A DNA stretch of 64,000 nt from Escherichia coli. Its GTDB lineage: Bacteria > Pseudomonadota > Gammaproteobacteria > Enterobacterales > Enterobacteriaceae. This document shows, in pieces, positions 34,321-60,140 of the stretch. Under the pieces are notes generated by a model. That model worked only from the letters and a program-made list of their open reading frames with translations. It searched no databases and had not been told where the DNA came from. Both the position numbers and the translations under genes were made by a program. The stretch lies in assembly GCF_044324785.1 (NCBI RefSeq), contig NZ_CP172127.1. One strand, given 5' to 3'. Every line of letters begins with the position of its first letter. The stretch's first letter is position 1.

Positions 34321-35505
34321 TTAACTTTCCCGGCTGGAGAGTGAATCAATGTAATCAGCGTACCATTGCATCATTTCACGGCGGCCATCGAGATACAGGG
34401 CATGATTATAGGTACCCCTGATGGAATTTTTATCCACATGAGCTAACTGCATTTCAATCCAGGCAGAATTAAAGCCCTGTTCGTGCAGAATGGTACTCAT
34501 GGTGTGACGAAAACCATGACCGGTTGCCCTGCCATCGTAACCGATACGTTTGAGCACCATATTGATGCTGGCTTCGCTCATTGGCTTGTTGATATCACAA
34601 CGTCCCGGAAAAACCAGCCGGTATTGCCCGGAGAAAGTTTTGAGCTGCAGCAGAATGTCAGTGGCCTGTCGTGACAGTGGTACGACATGTTTACGTCGCA
34701 TTTTCATGCGGCTTTCAGGGATTGTCCACAGTGCATTATCAAAATCAATTTCTGACCATTCAGCGGACCGTAGCTCAATGGTTCTGAGACCTGTCAGAAG
34801 CAGCAGATTTGTCGCCATGCGGGTAACAGGACTGCCATGATACTCAGCGAGCTTCCGGAGAAAAACAGGGAGCTCATCTGCTCTCAGGTGGGGGAAATGT
34901 GCAGCTTTTGGCGCCGCCAGCGTACTGGTCAGTTCAGATGCCGGATTGACAGTGGCTCGTCCGGTGGCGATGGCATAACGAAAAATCTGATTACAGTATT
35001 GACGCACCTTACGAAGTTTTTCCAGCGAGCCACGTTTTTCTATGCGGCGCAGAATTTCCAGCATTTCCAGCGGGAGGATATCCGTAACGCTTCGTTTGCC
35101 CAGATACGGGAAAATATCTTTATCCAGCGCTTCCAGTACGCTTCTGGCGTAACTTTCAGACCATGACAAAGATTTATGCTGGTGCCATTCCGTAGCGAGG
35201 GCATGGAACGTATTGGTGGCAGAGATTTTCTGAGTGAGTTTTTCCTTTCGCTTCTTTTCGCCCGGGTCACCACCTTCGGAGATGATTTTTCGGGCATCGT
35301 CGCGTTTGATTCTGGCCTCAGCAAGGGAGACGTCGGGATAGACGCCGAGGGCCAGTTTTTTCTCTTTTCCTGCTATCCGGTATTTAAGCCGCCAGTAGCG
35401 GGCACCCGTGGTTTTTACCAGCAGATATAAACCACGTTCGTCAGAGAGTTTATAGTCTTTTTCTTTAGGTCTGGCTGTTTCGACCTGTCTGGCTGTAAGT
35501 GCCAT
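34321..35505 (-). CDS. int: P4-type tyrosine integrase
   Basis: About 394 aa from MALTARQVETARPKEKDYKLSDERGLYLLVK (P4-int N-terminus); C-terminal catalytic region with GHGFRHT and Tyr; next to the tRNA-Phe 3' fragment. Confidence 0.9.
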   Translation of the reverse strand: MALTARQVETARPKEKDYKLSDERGLYLLVKTTGARYWRLKYRIAGKEKKLALGVYPDVSLAEARIKRDDARKIISEGGDPGEKKRKEKLTQKISATNTFHALATEWHQHKSLSWSESYARSVLEALDKDIFPYLGKRSVTDILPLEMLEILRRIEKRGSLEKLRKVRQYCNQIFRYAIATGRATVNPASELTSTLAAPKAAHFPHLRADELPVFLRKLAEYHGSPVTRMATNLLLLTGLRTIELRSAEWSEIDFDNALWTIPESRMKMRRKHVVPLSRQATDILLQLKTFSGQYRLVFPGRCDINKPMSEASINMVLKRIGYDGRATGHGFRHTMSTILHEQGFNSAWIEMQLAHVDKNSIRGTYNHALYLDGRREMMQWYADYIDSLSSRES

Positions 35506-35680
35506 ATGGGGGCTCCTGAAACTGACTGAACACAATGAGCCCCCACCGGGGCCCCCAATGAACGCTTGATTGAGAGAGAGTTCAGTAGAGTCTGGTGGAG
35601 TTCAGAATGTTCAGATTGCTTGTAACGATGTGATTATACTTGAGTTTCGTGGAGTTCGGGAGATGAATCTGGAAGTGAAA

Positions 35681-35730
35681 GTGGTGCCCGGACTCGGAAT
35701 CGAACCAAGGACACGGGGATTTTCAATCCC
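35681..35730 (-). other. Partial tRNA-Phe gene, 3' 50 nt only (displaced attachment-site copy)
   Basis: Minus-strand sequence equals the 3' 50 nt of E. coli tRNA-Phe (as I recall it) including anticodon loop and CCA; identity stops where the 5' half should be. Confidence 0.8.
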
Positions 35731-35782
35731 CGTGCCATAATTGGCTGTGTCAGTTGGTTACACACCATTGAGGTGTGTACTA

Positions 35783-36661
35783 ATGAAAATACTGCCCGTT
35801 GTCTCCACAAAAGGTGGCGAAGGTAAATCAACACAATCCGCAAACCTGGCTGGTTTTCTCGCCGATGCAGGTATCCGTACCCTGCTGATTGACGGAGATC
35901 ATGCTCAGCCCACGGCAAGCAACATCTTTCCGCTGACATATGAAGCGTCAGCCGGTCTTTTTGAGTTGCTGATGCGCACGGCTGACCTCAGTCATCCCGA
36001 TAACATCATTTCCCGCACGGCTATCGACGGACTCGATCTGATAGTCTCCAATGACCCTCATGAGCAGTTAAAAACTGCGATGCTTCACGCCCCGGATGGT
36101 CGTCTGCGCCTCCGGAATGTCCTGCAGCATCCGCTTTTTCTGAACAACTACGATGTCATTGTAGTTGATTCTCAGGGAGCACGTTCTGTCATGCTCGAAA
36201 TGATTATGCTGTCGGCCACTGATTCGGTTGTCGGGATGGTCAATCCGGTACTCCCTGATGTGCGCGAGTTTATTCGGGGCACTGTCAATGTTATGGAGAA
36301 CCTGCTGCCTTACCGGGAGCTGGGGATACCCCTGCCGAAAGTACGCACGCTGGTTAACTGCATGGATTATACGGCACTGGCCAGGAAGACGCTGGATGAG
36401 CTGGCCGGAATTATTCAGACCGGTCGTTACAGCAGACAGTTACCTGAAGGTGCGGTTTCCCTTCTTTCCACACAGATTTACGACCTGAATATTTACAAGC
36501 AGGGGCATGCGGCTGGTCAACCCGTACATCGTCTCGAAAAAGAATCCACACGTCGCAGTGATTCCGCGCTTGTCACGATGCACAGCCTGGCCTGTGAACT
36601 CTTTCCTGAGTGGAAACAGGCGTTTGACGGGCTGCTGGCGAACGGGGGAATACGTCAGTGA
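35783..36661 (+). CDS. parA: ParA/Soj-family partition ATPase
   Basis: MKILPVVSTKGGEGKSTQSANLA deviant Walker A; first gene inside the ICE boundary. Confidence 0.9.
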   Translation: MKILPVVSTKGGEGKSTQSANLAGFLADAGIRTLLIDGDHAQPTASNIFPLTYEASAGLFELLMRTADLSHPDNIISRTAIDGLDLIVSNDPHEQLKTAMLHAPDGRLRLRNVLQHPLFLNNYDVIVVDSQGARSVMLEMIMLSATDSVVGMVNPVLPDVREFIRGTVNVMENLLPYRELGIPLPKVRTLVNCMDYTALARKTLDELAGIIQTGRYSRQLPEGAVSLLSTQIYDLNIYKQGHAAGQPVHRLEKESTRRSDSALVTMHSLACELFPEWKQAFDGLLANGGIRQ

Positions 36662-36749
36662 TTCAGGTTAAGCGAGAACCATGCAGCTCCGTTACCCTGG
36701 CTTATGGACGTTATCAATACCGGACAATATGACGAGAAGGATTAACCCT

Positions 36750-51769: not shown

Positions 51770-52714
51770 GTGAGTGAAAAAGTTAACAAAATCACTATGA
51801 TTCATGACGGGGCGTTAAAGAAGACGCTTGAAGATCCCGCAGCAGTAAGGGACTTTCTTGAACAGGTCTTGACACACGATCAGATATCCCGCTGTAATCT
51901 TGATACAATAGAAGTTGAAAAGAATTCGTTCGTGACGGAAAGTTTGCGTCAGCATGCCTGTGATGTTTTGATCAGCATGAAGACAAACGACGGCAGGGAC
52001 GGATACATTTATACCTTAATCGAGCACCAGAGTTCGCCGGATAAATTCATCCCGCTGCGTATGATGCGATATATCCTGGCTGTAATGGAGCAACATGTTG
52101 AAAAGCATAAGTGTGCACCTGTGGTGATCCCCGTGCTGTTTTATCATGGTGCAGTGCGGCCATATCCGTATCCGCTGAACTGGGTGGATTGTCTGGATGA
52201 CCCGGAGTACGGACGTGAGATTTATGGCGAGTCAAAGCCATTCAGTCTGGTGGATGTCAGTACGCTTGATGATGATGAAATTGAGCAGTATCGCCGGATG
52301 GCGGCGCTGATGTACACCATGAAGTCCGGAACTCAGGGTGATTTGATTGAGCTGATTGGTAAATCGATCACACTGACGGATAAGTATGGCAGCAGCGTTC
52401 ACCTGAATACGGTGCTTACTTATCTGATGGAACTTTACCAGATGGATGTTGCTGAACTTTTTGAAGCAATATCCACACACTATCCCAGCCACAAGGGGGT
52501 GATTATGACGATAGCGGAACAACTGGAAGAGAAAGGCCTTGAGAAAGGCCGTGCTGAAGGTCTTGCTGAAGGCCGTGCTGAAGAGCGTCAAAAAGCGCTT
52601 GCAGAAACCTATGCATCTGTCCGTCGCATGAGTGATATGGGGATGTCAACAGAAGTTATTAAGCAAGCTCTTCAGCTTTCTGATGAACAGATTCAGGAAG
52701 CGCTTAATAATTAA
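51770..52714 (+). CDS. Rpn-family recombination-promoting nuclease (YhgA-like, PD-(D/E)xK)
   Basis: About 315 aa from GTG after RBS GGAGG; motifs IHDGALKKTL, DVLISMKTNDGRDGYIYTLIEHQSSPDKFIPLRMMRY, VIPVLFYHG are collinear with E. coli YhgA-like proteins. Confidence 0.75.
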   Translation: MSEKVNKITMIHDGALKKTLEDPAAVRDFLEQVLTHDQISRCNLDTIEVEKNSFVTESLRQHACDVLISMKTNDGRDGYIYTLIEHQSSPDKFIPLRMMRYILAVMEQHVEKHKCAPVVIPVLFYHGAVRPYPYPLNWVDCLDDPEYGREIYGESKPFSLVDVSTLDDDEIEQYRRMAALMYTMKSGTQGDLIELIGKSITLTDKYGSSVHLNTVLTYLMELYQMDVAELFEAISTHYPSHKGVIMTIAEQLEEKGLEKGRAEGLAEGRAEERQKALAETYASVRRMSDMGMSTEVIKQALQLSDEQIQEALNN

Positions 52715-52781
52715 CCTCACATCGTAATGATGTGGCAGAGCGCGACTGATGCGTCAGAATGCGTGATGCCCTGTGAACACA

Positions 52782-52810
52782 GCGCCTGCCATTGTGCAGG
52801 CGTTTTTTTT
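52782..52810. terminator. Strong rho-independent terminator after the Rpn gene
   Basis: CGCCTGC-CATTGT-GCAGGCG followed by T8. Confidence 0.75.
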
Positions 52811-54983: not shown

Positions 54984-55618
54984 TGTCGCTGCTGCTGATG
55001 GCAGTCAGCATTCCGGCGGGGGCGGCGCTGCATGATATCCCGGAGGGATACGTGCGTGTGGCGGAACAGCATGGTGTTCCGGCAGAAGTACTCTATGCCG
55101 TCTCGCTGACCGAGACGGCCATGGTCCCCTCCGCCATTGGTGCTGTAATGAAAAAACGGAATGAGGATTACAGGGTACCAGCAGTGGCACGTCCCTGGCC
55201 CTGGACCATCAATGTGGCGGGCCGGGGATACCGCTATGCCAGTCGACTGGAGGCCTGGCAGGCCCTCCAGGTTTTTCTGAAACGATATCCGGCCCGACGG
55301 ATTGATGTGGGGATAGCCCAGGTCAATCTGGGCTGGAACGGGCACCGTTTTGCGTCCACATGGGCGGCATTTGACCCGTACACCAGTCTGAACACGGCGG
55401 CGGTCATCCTGAGAGAATGTCGCCGTCGCCATCCTGACAGCTGGCTGCAGGCTGCCGGCTGTTATCACCATCCGGCAGGCGGCGCACCCGCAGTACGCTA
55501 CATCGCGCTGGTGAGGCGGCATATTGACCGCCTCCACCGTGATGCGGTCAGTACGTCAGGTGTGACTGCCATGAATCCCCGTTATATCCGGACAGAACCC
55601 CGGGAGTTAACCCCATGA
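54962..55618 (+). CDS. Lytic transglycosylase (SLT domain, VirB1-like)
   Basis: 218 aa with signal peptide; SLT-type motifs (EVLYAVSLTETAM, PWPWTINV, IAQVNLGW). Confidence 0.7.
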   Translation: MARGSLLMSLLLMAVSIPAGAALHDIPEGYVRVAEQHGVPAEVLYAVSLTETAMVPSAIGAVMKKRNEDYRVPAVARPWPWTINVAGRGYRYASRLEAWQALQVFLKRYPARRIDVGIAQVNLGWNGHRFASTWAAFDPYTSLNTAAVILRECRRRHPDSWLQAAGCYHHPAGGAPAVRYIALVRRHIDRLHRDAVSTSGVTAMNPRYIRTEPRELTP

Positions 55619-56142
55619 AACGATTTAAACGATATGTCATGACGACCGCAACGGGTCTGTTGCTGTGCGCGGCTCAGGCCGGCGCGGAGCTCAGGGTGAT
55701 TGCTGACCTTGGTGGCAGTGATGCCGGCAGGTTTTATGAAGCAATAAACCGCCAGGCGGACAGCGGAACGTCGTCGCCTGTCACGGCGCTGCTGCCGCAG
55801 GGGGAGAGTGCGATGCTGCCTGTTTCCACGCCGGAAATGTCTCCCGGAGAGGTGACGCCGAGGCCACTGCAGTTACCGGGGCTGGGGGCACTGTTCCTCG
55901 TGGGGGATGATGCACTCTCCCGTCAGTGGCTGCAGGCGAATGCGGCCGCGCTGCTTGAAAGGAAGGCTGCCGGTATGGTGGTGAGCGTGACGAATGAGAG
56001 CGGTCTGCAGGCGCTGCGGGCGCTGGCTCCCGGTGTGATGATGGTACCGGCTTCCGGTTCAGCACTGGCCCGCCGTCTGCAGCTTGACCACTGGCCGGTG
56101 CTGATAACGGACAGTGGTATCAGCAGTGTGGTGATGCCGTGA
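55615..56142 (+). CDS. Conserved ICE secreted protein
   Basis: 175 aa with signal peptide (LLLCAAQAGA); operon context. Confidence 0.5.
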   Translation: MKRFKRYVMTTATGLLLCAAQAGAELRVIADLGGSDAGRFYEAINRQADSGTSSPVTALLPQGESAMLPVSTPEMSPGEVTPRPLQLPGLGALFLVGDDALSRQWLQANAAALLERKAAGMVVSVTNESGLQALRALAPGVMMVPASGSALARRLQLDHWPVLITDSGISSVVMP

Positions 56143-56732
56143 TGCAGAGACAACTGACGGACCTGTTACAGGAAGGCGCGTGGCACGGCATTCTGCTGTG
56201 CGTTCTGGTCGTGCTGTTTCTGTTTTTTCCGCGCCTGTGGGGGCGATGCAGGCATCGTGAACGCGCCAGTGAGCGTCGTCACCGCCGTTACCGCGCTGCG
56301 GCTGAACGTGTGCTGACAAAGCTGCCGGAAGGTGGGGCGGGTGTGAAATACCTGCGAAAAATTAACCCGTATGTGTTTGAAGAACTGCTGCTTCTGGCGT
56401 TTGAACGCAGGGGGATGGCGGTCATCCGTAACACACGTTACAGCGGAGATGGTGGCCTGGATGGTCAGGTGCTGATTGACGGCGAGCGGTGGCTGATTCA
56501 GGCCAAACGTTACGGACGGACCATCCGTCCGTCGCATATTGATGATTTTGGTGACCTGCTGCGCCGTGAAGGCTGCCGTGGATTTTTTATTCACACCGGT
56601 CGTACGGGACCTGCCAGCCGGGCACGGCTGGCGCTGTGGCCGGATATTGAGCTGGTCAGCGGGCAGCGTCTGCTGAAACTGCTGAACGGGGCATTGCTGC
56701 CGGATGAACTTACCAGAGGAGCGCGGAGATGA
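56139..56732 (+). CDS. Membrane-anchored restriction-endonuclease-like (Mrr-cat, PD-(D/E)xK) protein
   Basis: 197 aa; N-terminal TM helix (ILLCVLVVLFLFF), then Mrr-catalytic-like motifs YVFEELLLLAFERRGM, SGDGGLDGQVL, LIQAKRY. Confidence 0.6.
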   Translation: MMQRQLTDLLQEGAWHGILLCVLVVLFLFFPRLWGRCRHRERASERRHRRYRAAAERVLTKLPEGGAGVKYLRKINPYVFEELLLLAFERRGMAVIRNTRYSGDGGLDGQVLIDGERWLIQAKRYGRTIRPSHIDDFGDLLRREGCRGFFIHTGRTGPASRARLALWPDIELVSGQRLLKLLNGALLPDELTRGARR

Positions 56733-57241
56733 TGACGGTAAAACGGATGTTTATGTTTTTATTCAGAATAACGATTGTCTGGCCATCCGTGCTGACAGGA
56801 TGCGTGATGATGCTGTATTTCGCGAAGGTCGCCGGCGGTGGTGTGGCGGGACTGGAGCAGCGTTACGGGGTGGAATCCGCCCGCTGGCGTGATGCGCCGG
56901 AAGGGATGGTGATGACAGTGCAGTGCCCGTCGCGTCCCTTTATGGCGTCTGTGAGCACCGGGGAGTGGCGTGCACTGGCTGCATCTGATGATGAATGCAG
57001 CCAGGTTTCGCGCTCTTTCAGAGAAGCTGCAGAGGGCGATGCGCAGTCGCTGCGCAGAGTGGCAGTGACACTGCTGCTGGCATCCGTGGTTCTGGAAGCG
57101 TTTTCAGCCTGCATTCTGCGCCGGGTAACGGCATCCGTCCGGGTATCACCACACTGTGGATATGGCTGCGGACGTGGTGCGGTGGCGCACTGGCCAGAGA
57201 GCAGCGTTCACACTGCACCGGAGAAAGGAGAGCGGGTGTGA
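56729..57241 (+). CDS. Conserved ICE lipoprotein
   Basis: 170 aa; signal peptide with lipobox-like LTGC. Confidence 0.5.
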   Translation: MMTVKRMFMFLFRITIVWPSVLTGCVMMLYFAKVAGGGVAGLEQRYGVESARWRDAPEGMVMTVQCPSRPFMASVSTGEWRALAASDDECSQVSRSFREAAEGDAQSLRRVAVTLLLASVVLEAFSACILRRVTASVRVSPHCGYGCGRGAVAHWPESSVHTAPEKGERV

Positions 57242-58023
57242 ACGTTTCATTTACTGAACAGGTGCAGAGGGATATGCCGCAATGGGCGAATGACCCGTTA
57301 CTGGCATGGGATGCCACCGCGTTTGCGGCAATGTCGGATTTTATTACAGAGCACTACTGGACGGGACAGGGCAGCATCAATGTGTTCCGCATTGTGGGAA
57401 CTGACCATCCACAGTATGCCGGAATGACCTGGCTGGAGCTGCTGGAGCGCGGTAACCGTATGGACATCAATATCCCGTTACTGGAAAAAAATCCGGGATA
57501 CTACACGCAGGCAGAGCAACAGCATGCCGGGATGAGTTTTGTCAGCACGGATGGCGTTGACTGGTATGTCAGTGCAGACGGCAATCACCGCAGTTGCCTG
57601 GCACGCTTTCTGTTTCACCTGCAGGGGGAGGAGCGCACACAGCTTCACAACGTGGCACAGAGTATTTATCACACAGACCGGGCGTTCTGGTCTGCCTGCC
57701 GGGAAATCCACAACCTGACTGACGCGCTGTCCCGGCATGGTGTGTATATCCGTCTGCAGACCCGACGGCAGTGTGTTGCCCGCGAAGACCTGGCCTGCTG
57801 GAAAGTGGACCGTTTCAGCACAGAGGCGCAGCTGACAGTGGATGACGTGCGTGCCGGCGGACATGATATGCCTGCGGTGTATAAGACGTTGCTGCTGAAT
57901 GCAGCAGACGCATGGCGTGAGGTGATGGTATTACAGCGCAGACTGGAGGCGCTGTCTGCATCACCGGGGAACGATTTGCCACGCACATGGTGGCGACGTC
58001 TTTTACGGAAGGGGGACATGTAA
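57238..58023 (+). CDS. Conserved ICE T4SS-region protein
   Basis: About 261 aa from GTG overlapping upstream stop; RBS AGGAGA. Confidence 0.5.
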   Translation: MNVSFTEQVQRDMPQWANDPLLAWDATAFAAMSDFITEHYWTGQGSINVFRIVGTDHPQYAGMTWLELLERGNRMDINIPLLEKNPGYYTQAEQQHAGMSFVSTDGVDWYVSADGNHRSCLARFLFHLQGEERTQLHNVAQSIYHTDRAFWSACREIHNLTDALSRHGVYIRLQTRRQCVAREDLACWKVDRFSTEAQLTVDDVRAGGHDMPAVYKTLLLNAADAWREVMVLQRRLEALSASPGNDLPRTWWRRLLRKGDM

Positions 58024-60140
58024 TGAGCAACCGCTATGTCATTGAGGCATTGCTGAGACCGGCTGTGGAGTTCAATACGGCAGTGGTGGCAGCAACAGCA
58101 GCATGTATCTGTGTGACAGCCCCCTGGGCGGTGGCGCTGGCACCCACCGTCAGTTACGCCACTGCCGGTGGATTTGCCCTGCTGGCCGTGGTGCGTTTCC
58201 GGCAGGGGATGAACATCATCCGGTATCGCCGTAATCTGCGCCGGCTGCCCCGCTATGTGATGAGTACACGGCAGATCCCGCTCAGCCGTCAGCGGCTGTT
58301 TCTGGGGCGGGGATTTCGCTGGACCCAGAAGCATACCCAGCGTCTCCAGGATACGCTGCGACCGGAGGTGGCACACTATCTGCAGCCGGGCGGACTTTAC
58401 CGGCTGGCGCGCTGGCTGGAAATGAAAACGGAACACCGTCTGCCCGCGCTGGGGAAACTGCTCCGGCATGAGTCGTCGCTGAATCCTGTGCGTCCTCTGC
58501 CGCCGGTGGGGGGAAATCCCGCCCTGCATGGTATTGAGCCGGATGAACAGGATGTGACGCTGGCTCTGGGGGAGCGTGTGGGGCATACCATTGTCTACGG
58601 CACCACCCGTGTCGGTAAAACCCGCCTGGCAGAACTGCTGGTCACTCAGGATATCCGCAGGGGAGAGGTGACCATTGTGTTTGATCCCAAAGGTGATGCT
58701 GATCTGCTGCTGCGTGTCTGGGCGGAAGCACACCGTGCCGGGCGGGGTGATGAACTGTATATTTTCCATCTGGGATGGCCGGAAATTTCGGCCCGATATA
58801 ATGCGGTGGGACGCTTCGGGCGTGTTTCGGAAGTGGCTTCCCGTGTGGCCGGTCAGTTGTCCGGTGAAGGGAACTCGGCGGCTTTCCGCGAGTTCGCCTG
58901 GCGGTTCGTCAACATCATTTCCCGCGCCCTGGTGGCACTCGGTGAGCGCCCGGACTACCTGCTGATTGTGCGGTATGTGAACAACATAGCCGATCTCTAT
59001 ATCCGCTATGCCGGAAAGGTGATCCGCGAGCGCATGCCGGAACTGGAGCAGGCGATTGCGAATAACCAGAATGTGATCAGCGAGGAGGATGTTCCCCGCA
59101 CCATGCAGAACCAGCCGGATGCGGTACGTATCTGGTCCATCGAGATGGCCCTGAGCAGTGAGGAGGGTAAAAAAATTTACGATCCGATCCTGGACGGGCT
59201 TCGCAGTGCGGTCCGCTATGACCGTACCTATTTTGACAAAATCGTGGCGTCCCTGCTGCCGCTGCTGGAAAAACTCACCACGGGCAGGATCGCAGAGCTG
59301 CTGGCACCGGACTATCTGGACATGAACGATGCGCGACCGATTTTTGACTGGGAACAGGTGATCCGTAAAAAGGCGGTGGTCTATATCGGCCTGGATGCAC
59401 TCAGCGACAGTGTGGTAGCCAGTGCTGTGGGGAATTCGATGTTTGCGGACCTGGTGAGCGTGGCGGGGCATATCTACAAGCACGGCATGCATGCCGGTCT
59501 GCCCGGTAAGGGGGAAGGCAAAAATGTGGTGAACCTGCACTGCGATGAGTTTAACGAACTGATGGGGGATGAGTTTATTCCGCTCATTAACAAGGGGGGC
59601 GGTGCCGGTATGCAGGTCACCGCGTACACCCAGACATCGTCAGATATTGAAGCGCGTATCGGTAATGCAGCCAAAACGGCGCAGGTTCAGGGAAACTTCA
59701 ACAACATGATCATGCTGCGTGTCAGGGAGAACAGGACGGCAGAGCTGCTGACCACACAACTGCCTCAGGTGGAGATCTACACCAAGACGCTGGTCTCCGG
59801 TCACCAGGATACGGCGGACGTGTCTGCCGGTCAGGATTTCACGTCCAGCACCCAGGATCGTGTCGGCACGGTGAAGGTACCTCTGCTGGAGCCGTCAGAT
59901 ATTGTCACCCTGCCCAAGGGACAGGCGTTTGCCCTGCTGGAAGGGGGGCAGTTGTGGAAAATCCGGATGCCGCTGCCGGCAGGGGATACGGATGACGTGC
60001 TGATGCCGGAGAACATTGCCCGGGTGGCAGAGGCGATGAGACAGAACTATCACACCGGTGAAGGATGGTGGAATGAGCCGCCGTCAGCGCAGGCCGCCGG
60101 AACAGATGAAGGAGGCGGATATGGCGGAAGCGCGTCGTGA
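58023..60140 (+). CDS. traD: Conjugative coupling protein TraD (VirD4-like, PAPI-1/PFGI-1 class)
   Basis: About 705 aa; N-terminal TM segments, Walker A GTTRVGKT, large cytoplasmic ATPase domain; ATG overlaps upstream stop (TAATG). Confidence 0.85.
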   Translation: MSNRYVIEALLRPAVEFNTAVVAATAACICVTAPWAVALAPTVSYATAGGFALLAVVRFRQGMNIIRYRRNLRRLPRYVMSTRQIPLSRQRLFLGRGFRWTQKHTQRLQDTLRPEVAHYLQPGGLYRLARWLEMKTEHRLPALGKLLRHESSLNPVRPLPPVGGNPALHGIEPDEQDVTLALGERVGHTIVYGTTRVGKTRLAELLVTQDIRRGEVTIVFDPKGDADLLLRVWAEAHRAGRGDELYIFHLGWPEISARYNAVGRFGRVSEVASRVAGQLSGEGNSAAFREFAWRFVNIISRALVALGERPDYLLIVRYVNNIADLYIRYAGKVIRERMPELEQAIANNQNVISEEDVPRTMQNQPDAVRIWSIEMALSSEEGKKIYDPILDGLRSAVRYDRTYFDKIVASLLPLLEKLTTGRIAELLAPDYLDMNDARPIFDWEQVIRKKAVVYIGLDALSDSVVASAVGNSMFADLVSVAGHIYKHGMHAGLPGKGEGKNVVNLHCDEFNELMGDEFIPLINKGGGAGMQVTAYTQTSSDIEARIGNAAKTAQVQGNFNNMIMLRVRENRTAELLTTQLPQVEIYTKTLVSGHQDTADVSAGQDFTSSTQDRVGTVKVPLLEPSDIVTLPKGQAFALLEGGQLWKIRMPLPAGDTDDVLMPENIARVAEAMRQNYHTGEGWWNEPPSAQAAGTDEGGGYGGSAS

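Follow-up and report, generated by a model that had tools for sequence, protein, structure and literature searches.

A putative Mrr-type nuclease, predicted to be tethered to the membrane, encoded in the type IV secretion operon of an SPI-7-type integrative and conjugative element of Escherichia coli

Why should an operon for a conjugation machine carry the gene for a putative nuclease, and for one with a membrane helix at its N terminus? The question is raised by a 64,000-nucleotide stretch of Escherichia coli DNA (contig NZ_CP172127.1 of RefSeq assembly GCF_044324785.1; hereafter the window, meaning the whole stretch that was analysed), which carries an SPI-7-type integrative and conjugative element (ICE) of the MPF_G (ICEclc/PFGI-1) family, annotated with the replication proteins dnaB-PI, STY4528 and STY4534 and with topoisomerase III. 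In the type IV secretion system (T4SS) operon of this ICE, an earlier note, made by reading the sequence, had pointed to an open reading frame (ORF) as encoding a membrane-anchored Mrr-like nuclease that might serve in defence, in entry exclusion or in the processing of DNA at the pore. We evaluated this gene and its product (hereafter the Mrr gene and Mrr protein) by profile, structure and neighbourhood comparisons. We give about an even chance to the Mrr protein being a spatially confined nuclease at the interface of membrane and T4SS that serves element competition, exclusion or defence, and its role is probably to cut DNA at the membrane rather than to help build the mating machine.

The ORF was found where the earlier note had placed it, on the plus strand from a GTG at 56139 to 56732 (197 aa), with a single correction to its start. 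In RefSeq the identical gene, from E. coli chromosomes that are 100% identical, begins at the ATG at 56142 and encodes a 196-aa 'restriction endonuclease' (WP_001189536.1), and this ATG is probably the true start; residue numbers given here follow the 197-aa numbering. One base, an A, is shared by this ATG and the TGA with which the upstream PFL_4695-family gene ends (TGATG), and the stop codon of the Mrr gene overlaps the ATG of the next ORF (ATGA, 56729-56732). Because start and stop codons overlap at both ends, the signs of translational coupling to T4SS genes that the note had claimed can be read directly on both sides of the Mrr gene, in an operon that also encodes the type IV coupling protein TraD and whose genes overlap or abut throughout.

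The assignment of the product to the Mrr nucleases held up in the profile search that had been suggested for it. With hmmscan, residues 72-182 covered the Pfam model Mrr_cat (PF04471) over its full length (positions 1-115 of 115, E 2.4e-19). When a profile built from 108 homologues (33-81% identity to the Mrr protein) was aligned to EcoKMrr, the type IV methyl-directed enzyme of E. coli K-12, hhalign gave 98.7% probability and an E-value of 3.6e-16, the match being confined to Mrr residues 126-287. The catalytic domains of the two proteins are homologous, with no difference in the FE helix, the GDGGxDG loop or the QAK motif: E81 was paired with the FE helix, D104 with D199, D108 with D203 (in GDGGIDG) and Q121-A-K123 with Q219-A-K221. 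The putative catalytic residues thus align with an Mrr active site, the point on which the earlier note had made its claim depend, and the two motifs that it had named, SGDGGLDGQVL and LIQAKRY, are present. E81, D104, D108, Q121 and K123 were invariant or at least 90% conserved among the 108 homologues, and across 148 representatives of the family (at most 50% mutual identity) DxGxD was retained in 147 and QxK in 140. An AlphaFold model of the Mrr protein (mean pLDDT 94.1) consisted of a helix at residues 2-38, a second helix at 43-61 and then an alpha/beta core, for which all Foldseek matches in the PDB were PD-(D/E)xK nucleases (the FokI cleavage domain, EcoT38I, Cdn1, Hjc resolvases and Ecl18kI), at modest E-values of 7.5e-4 to 1e-2 but with a consistent fold class. 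Among PDB sequences, phmmer with the Mrr protein gave nothing, and a profile search gave only a weak match (E 0.16, about 50 residues) to the type ISP enzyme LlaBIII (PDB 4xqk), whose nuclease domain has the same D-x-G-x-D...I-Q-A-K motif within a 1578-aa soluble helicase-methyltransferase fusion, unlike the small Mrr protein. LlaBIII cleaves DNA, which by analogy suggests that the Q-x-K variant of the active site is compatible with cleavage. The ratio of nonsynonymous to synonymous substitution rates (dN/dS) against an 83%-identical E. coli allele was 0.225 for the whole gene, 0.10 for the nuclease domain and 0.48 for the N-terminal 65 columns, compared with 0.06 for TraD and 0.21 for the PFL_4695 gene. 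On these comparisons the Mrr gene is under purifying selection and its active site is intact, so the 'degenerate fold' that had been considered is unlikely, and the product is putatively a catalytically competent Mrr-type PD-(D/E)xK nuclease whose activity we infer from its conserved residues.

In front of this domain the protein departs from EcoKMrr. The N-terminal domain of the 304-aa EcoKMrr binds DNA, and its residues 1-125 are without counterpart in the 196/197-aa Mrr protein, where a transmembrane (TM) helix and a polybasic linker stand in their place; Pfam detected no second (recognition) domain in the Mrr protein, and NCBIfam has no model for it. Judged by its domain content, the protein is not of the EcoKMrr type of restriction-enzyme architecture, the N-terminal recognition domain being absent. 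The settings of the genes also differ, that of EcoKMrr lying in the chromosomal immigration-control region beside hsdR and the Mrr gene lying in conjugative elements. At the level of domains PADLOC matched the Mrr protein to mREase_IV (E 3.5e-5) and to the candidate system PDC-S02 (E 8.8e-7), and both matches spanned only the catalytic domain of much longer models.

The N-terminal TM helix claimed by the earlier note is borne out by a hydrophobic stretch at about residues 13-35 (Kyte-Doolittle mean over 19 residues up to 2.26), by the run of arginine and histidine after it and by the long first helix of the AlphaFold model. An acidic or neutral tail precedes the helix and a strongly basic stretch follows it, a pattern that recurs in the family: 130 of the 148 representatives had an N-terminal hydrophobic helix, and the median net charge of the next 25 residues was +8. 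R47 and H48 were invariant in the alignment of homologues, and the segment with R46-R47-H48 aligned to EcoKMrr residues 126-150, the linker before the catalytic core. Following the positive-inside rule, the basic flank would place the nuclease domain in the cytoplasm. In a fusion allele (P0010; 340 aa, six E. coli contigs, for example L077 4001-5023), the upstream signal-peptide/DUF2859 protein is in frame with the TM helix and Mrr domain, an arrangement that makes topological sense only if the N terminus of the Mrr part is periplasmic and that therefore supports the same orientation. The DUF2859 homologue of ICEclc, orf71178, has a signal peptide and was described as thioredoxin-like (ICEclc paper). 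The predicted topology is thus a single pass through the inner membrane with a periplasmic N terminus and a cytoplasmic nuclease domain. The fusion allele hints, in addition, at a functional link between the PFL_4695 and Mrr genes. Two other variants were seen: P0004 (276 aa), in which the TM helix is absent in a deletion-like manner, and the metagenomic P0247 (383 aa), in which an extra N-terminal TM helix and a Cys-containing domain of about 150 aa come before another TM helix and the Mrr domain; Mrr_cat was the only part of P0247 that Pfam recognized, and the extra domain could be periplasmic.

Whether the Mrr gene is part of the backbone of this ICE family, which the earlier note could not say, has a divided answer: it is conserved and syntenic in one sub-lineage, comprising Enterobacterales and Shewanella, and is not a feature of the MPF_G family as a whole. 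The 3-kb stretch around the gene was found in 104 of 5426 complete E. coli genomes. The order PFL_4695, Mrr, zero to two variable ORFs, TraD recurred in 24 further ICE loci of the genome_contigs collection (TraD match >400 aa), all from Enterobacterales apart from one Shewanella locus, with the reference E. coli locus and a plasmid-borne ICE of Serratia counted separately; the genera include Serratia, Pantoea, Citrobacter, Erwinia, Photorhabdus, Morganella, Pectobacterium and Hafnia. In Shewanella the Mrr gene abuts a TraD gene whose product is only 43% identical. The gap between Mrr and TraD was <80 nt in 13 of the 24 loci and held 0.4-2.5 kb of variable ORFs in the other 11, as it does in the window, and this slot behaves like a small insertion hotspot that takes up zero to two differing ORFs. 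Median identities over the ICE loci were 78% for TraD, 64% for Mrr and 55% for PFL_4695, and Mrr identity tracked that of PFL_4695 (Spearman rho 0.71); co-evolution of Mrr with TraD, which we also considered, was not supported (rho 0.11). In ICEclc the TraD gene (orf68987) directly adjoins the DUF2859 gene orf71178 and there is no Mrr gene (ICEclc paper), nor was one found in the ICEs of E. coli LF82 and D7, which are of the same family and have a TraD gene about 69% identical in nucleotides. E. coli chromosomes had 221 places with TraD and 139 with Mrr, counts to be read with the different blastn sensitivity of the two queries. Since the gene is missing from ICEclc and from the ICEs of LF82 and D7, it is not a structural T4SS component, which the earlier note had named as something that would undo its reading, and by its distribution it is an accessory gene conserved in one sub-lineage.

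Beyond these ICEs the family is large. A word-indexed search returned 1434 homologues at E<=1e-5, and representative clusters numbered 5561 at E<=0.001 and 473 at E<=1e-30, the 473 clusters (50% identity) standing for a family of about 190 aa with TM helix, basic segment and Mrr_cat domain. Homologues were present on 2608 plasmids in PLSDB, 2026 of which are predicted to be conjugative. In sphingomonads (15 loci), an F-type TraD gene is followed by a MOBF TraI gene and directly downstream by Mrr; in Micavibrio the homologue overlaps the start of the VirD4 gene, in Crocinitomix it comes directly after the Bacteroidetes coupling protein MobC, and in a flavobacterium it is near the relaxase MobB. 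In eight spirochaete loci topoisomerase III is upstream of Mrr, adjacent or within a few kb, and one of these loci is at the end of an integrase-bounded element. On a Treponema contig (L070 115-7890) an Mrr-like gene directly follows the gene for a 2591-aa multidomain protein with RadC-like and DEDD-exonuclease regions, of a kind typical of conjugative elements. IncN plasmids have the gene, already annotated 'mrr', in their backbone beside kikA and traL at the edge of the T4SS cluster. The IncN proteins (N3, R46, pKOX105, pMUR050) and Orf16 of pOXA-48 were 51-55% identical to the Mrr protein over residues 59-183 and similar in size and architecture, and their neighbourhoods differ, with the IncN gene beside kikA, the IncL/M gene in a maintenance region and the window gene between PFL_4695 and TraD. 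On pOXA-48-type IncL/M plasmids (L002 6625-7453, L051 7667-8495), a small XRE-family gene overlaps the start of the homologue, and two further small ORFs and the tyrosine recombinase gene resD follow it, a five-gene set that is repeated in a Pluralibacter contig. Two ideas about plasmid genes were rejected. orf35 and orf36 of pCTX-M3 are not the Mrr gene, Orf35 being YggA-like and Orf36 a three-TM protein encoded between traL and traM, and control of the homologue by the essential XRE regulator Orf20 of pOXA-48 was suspected and dropped, since the homologue is Orf16 and is preceded by a different XRE gene, Orf15.

Functional data exist for the pOXA-48 homologue. In a transposon-insertion sequencing (Tn-seq) study (PMC12365149, supplementary tables), orf16 and the upstream orf15 were both classed as 'non-essential', and orf16 insertions left representation among transconjugants unchanged (log2 fold change 0.71, adjusted p 0.25); a plasmid-wide CRISPR interference (CRISPRi) study did not list the homologue among genes with effects, and the pOXA-48 authors filed Orf16 under 'host defense'. 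Neither the maintenance of pOXA-48 nor its transfer between laboratory E. coli thus depends on the 55%-identical Orf16, taken as a proxy for the ICE in the window, and together with the sister ICEs that lack the gene this argues against a role required for self-transfer. In the literature searched, the membrane anchor, the missing recognition domain and the linkage to coupling-protein genes were not described for this family; 'mrr' in plasmid papers mostly stands for 'multiple resistance region' and not for this gene.

We postulate that the Mrr protein would be made together with the T4SS and TraD and that its cutting site would be set by location, at the cytoplasmic face of the membrane: because it has no DNA-recognition domain, location would decide where it can cut. 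It would there cleave DNA at the membrane/T4SS interface other than the protected substrate of its own element. A possible target is the DNA of a rival or hitch-hiking co-resident element docked at the coupling protein, which would amount to fertility inhibition. Alternatively, the enzyme might act on DNA that enters via the mating pore, as an exclusion at the level of DNA, or on DNA injected by a phage. Its tether would keep the enzyme off the nucleoid. On this view its role would be one of competition or defence. More broadly, proteins with TM helix, basic segment and Mrr_cat domain may form a widespread class of coupling-protein-associated nucleases in at least five T4SS types, which would destroy the DNA of competitors at the membrane, as a fertility inhibition or exclusion that works on DNA, and tell self from non-self by T4SS location instead of sequence or modification; we put this forward tentatively, as a generalization that is possible but on the doubtful side.

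Two precedents make a location-limited nuclease plausible. SNIPE has an N-out TM helix and a cytoplasmic nuclease that cuts phage DNA on entry, and its tether prevents self-cleavage, the protein being toxic when untethered (bioRxiv 10.1101/2025.11.03.685801). The layout predicted for the Mrr protein resembles that of SNIPE, with a short N terminus in the periplasm, a single TM helix, a DNA-binding element of positive charge and a nuclease in the cytoplasm, and the logic would also be alike, the tether replacing recognition of sequence or modification as the filter between self and non-self. SNIPE itself is a much larger protein with DUF4041 and GIY-YIG domains, encoded by a chromosomal anti-phage gene, whereas the Mrr protein is a PD-(D/E)xK enzyme encoded in conjugation clusters; Pfam found Mrr_cat but neither DUF4041 nor GIY-YIG in it, and the two are not homologous. 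The other precedent comes from the fertility-inhibition factors Osa (IncW), PifC (F) and FipA (pKM101), products of plasmid accessory genes that act at the type IV coupling protein of a rival. Osa belongs to the ParB/Srx superfamily and is reported to be a DNase that degrades the transfer DNA of the rival (Maindola et al., 2014). The three factors, described in the paper cited for them as recent and fast-moving acquisitions, are unrelated in fold to the Mrr protein, and the Mrr gene is instead stably syntenic in its ICE lineage; what is seen for the Mrr gene is a genomic association with coupling-protein genes.

Several points weigh against this proposal. DNA in conjugative transfer is single-stranded and capped by a relaxase, and Mrr-type enzymes are known for double-stranded cutting. 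The DNA of the element itself docks at the same coupling protein and would somehow have to escape. The topology is derived from hydropathy, charge and one fusion allele, and no phenotype was reported for any family member in the literature searched. Adjacency to a coupling protein is not universal in the family, as on IncL/M plasmids the homologue follows an XRE regulator in the maintenance region, apart from the tra genes, and a minority of loci (L049, L053, L056, L064 and L066) had no recognizable conjugation genes. The family loci were, moreover, fetched by matching two peptide patterns and fall into groups of related lineages, so that truly independent associations with DNA-transfer genes number about five, not dozens, which is still far above expectation for a defence gene that moves freely.

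The most serious rival holds that the gene is plain type IV restriction or anti-phage cargo whose position in the operon has no mechanistic meaning. Its annotations and the 'host defense' label on pOXA-48 agree with this, as do the mREase_IV and PDC-S02 matches, the dispensability of the homologue for transfer and the frequency with which mobile elements carry defence genes. Yet the PADLOC matches are to the catalytic domain only, and where EcoKMrr has the N-terminal winged-helix domain that gives it DNA and modification recognition, the Mrr proteins have a conserved membrane anchor; at least five unrelated element types have the small architecture next to genes for a coupling protein, a relaxase or topoisomerase III, and one fixed ICE slot has been kept across 24 loci and many genera. 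We therefore consider simple cargo unlikely, if the alternative most worth keeping in view. A DNA-processing accessory for the element's own transfer, trimming or resolving its DNA at the coupling protein or aiding establishment in the recipient, would account for the translational coupling within the T4SS/TraD operon, for the long retention under purifying selection and for the neighbouring coupling-protein or relaxase genes in MPF_G, F-type, VirD4 and Bacteroidetes systems. We think it improbable, as ICEclc transfers with a T4SS of the same family without an Mrr gene, the LF82 and D7 ICEs also lack one, and relaxases are established as the enzymes of the known cleavage steps.

It is very improbable that the protein is a catalytically dead nuclease fold serving as a membrane scaffold or DNA-binding tether. 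The lack of a recognizable specificity domain would suit such a protein, and so would a weak secondary Pfam match to NA-iREase1, an inactive restriction-endonuclease family (E 0.0055), but the Mrr_cat match is 17 orders of magnitude stronger, and inactive derivatives normally lose the active-site residues that are here near-invariant and shared with EcoKMrr and LlaBIII. Least probable of all is an addiction-module toxin that a regulator or immunity protein encoded next to it restrains. An unspecific nuclease in the cytoplasm could harm the cell, and the XRE-family gene overlapping the homologue in IncL/M could be its guard; however, orf15 and orf16 were both non-essential, which is unexpected if orf15 protected against a toxic orf16, and in the ICE loci there is no regulator beside the gene, the downstream ORFs are variable and no partner is conserved. 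The reading that we prefer remains a nuclease confined to the membrane/T4SS interface.

The features of the operon and of the Mrr gene are collected in Table 1.

Table 1. Location of the Mrr gene, its predicted segments and the surrounding transfer genes in the window.
Feature	Position	Strand	Basis or remark
Operon pilL-N, hypothetical, TIGR03759, SLT transglycosylase, PFL_4695, Mrr, hyp170, hyp249, traD, TIGR03747	52905..60882	+	
PFL_4695/TIGR03765 (DUF2859), periplasmic ICE protein	55615..56142	+	NCBIfam TIGR03765, E 2.1e-38
Mrr-type nuclease gene, product predicted to be membrane-tethered	56142..56732	+	ORF, RefSeq CDS, Pfam Mrr_cat, dN/dS
Predicted N-terminal TM helix, about residues 14-33	56178..56237	+	Hydropathy, AlphaFold (AF2) helix, charge pattern
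Polybasic juxtamembrane segment and linker helix, residues 32-71 (R46-R47-H48; helix 43-61)	56232..56351	+	
Mrr_cat PD-(D/E)xK nuclease core, residues 72-182	56352..56684	+	Pfam, hhalign, Foldseek
Putative active-site codons	E81 56379-56381; D104 56448-56450; D108 56460-56462; Q121 56499-56501; K123 56505-56507	+	
hyp170, 170 aa, hydrophobic segments	56729..57241	+	ATG overlaps Mrr stop
hyp249, 249 aa, invariant DGNHR motif	57274..58023	+	RefSeq CDS; in only some related ICEs, between Mrr and TraD
traD, type IV coupling protein, TOL/PFGI-1 class	58023..60140	+	NCBIfam TIGR03754, 1086.7 bits; RefSeq

Of the two ORFs between Mrr and traD, hyp170 had no match in NCBIfam, PADLOC, Pfam or PHROG, is missing from most related ICE loci and is not similar to Orf17 of pOXA-48, and was rejected as a conserved partner. 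hyp249 had 31 homologues, all from Enterobacterales where a source was named; as a candidate Osa-like ParB/Srx protein it was not upheld, with no match in Pfam, NCBIfam, PADLOC, PHROG or the PDB, and its AlphaFold model had pLDDT <50 over the DGNHR region. Just upstream of pilL is a terminator-like hairpin (52781-52804; 9 pairs, then T8), to which nothing comparably strong corresponds inside the operon and which probably separates the replication/ssb module from the transfer operon. Further upstream, a tandem repeat (49955-50134; 2.9 copies of a 61-bp unit, 90% matches) precedes an STY4534-like gene (50386-50850). An ORF at 51491-52714, whose start is probably later than 51491, lies between ssb and pilL, in the position of a 'Rpn family recombination-promoting nuclease/putative transposase' gene in a related locus (L001). 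In L077 the gene that occupies this position matched Pfam Transposase_31. The product of the window ORF would thus be another PD-(D/E)xK-type protein in the ICE. L001, a related E. coli ICE, also has the siderophore-receptor/adhesin gene iha (34602-36689, past the 3' end of the window) inserted amid its T4SS cluster, with the conjugative ATPase region on one side and the TIGR03757 gene on the other.

The gene was already annotated as 'restriction endonuclease' or 'mrr'; its architecture and distribution are solid, and its function as set out here is a hypothesis. The family occurs on clinically important carriers, among them pOXA-48/IncL-M and IncN plasmids and SPI-7-type ICEs of E. coli, Salmonella (including Typhi) and Serratia. 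As a simple defence nuclease the Mrr protein would be nothing out of the ordinary. If it is confined to the membrane and acts in conflict between elements, it would be a new type of barrier shaping the coexistence and spread of plasmids, and a second case after SNIPE, unrelated to it, of immunity that depends on where DNA is and not on what it is.

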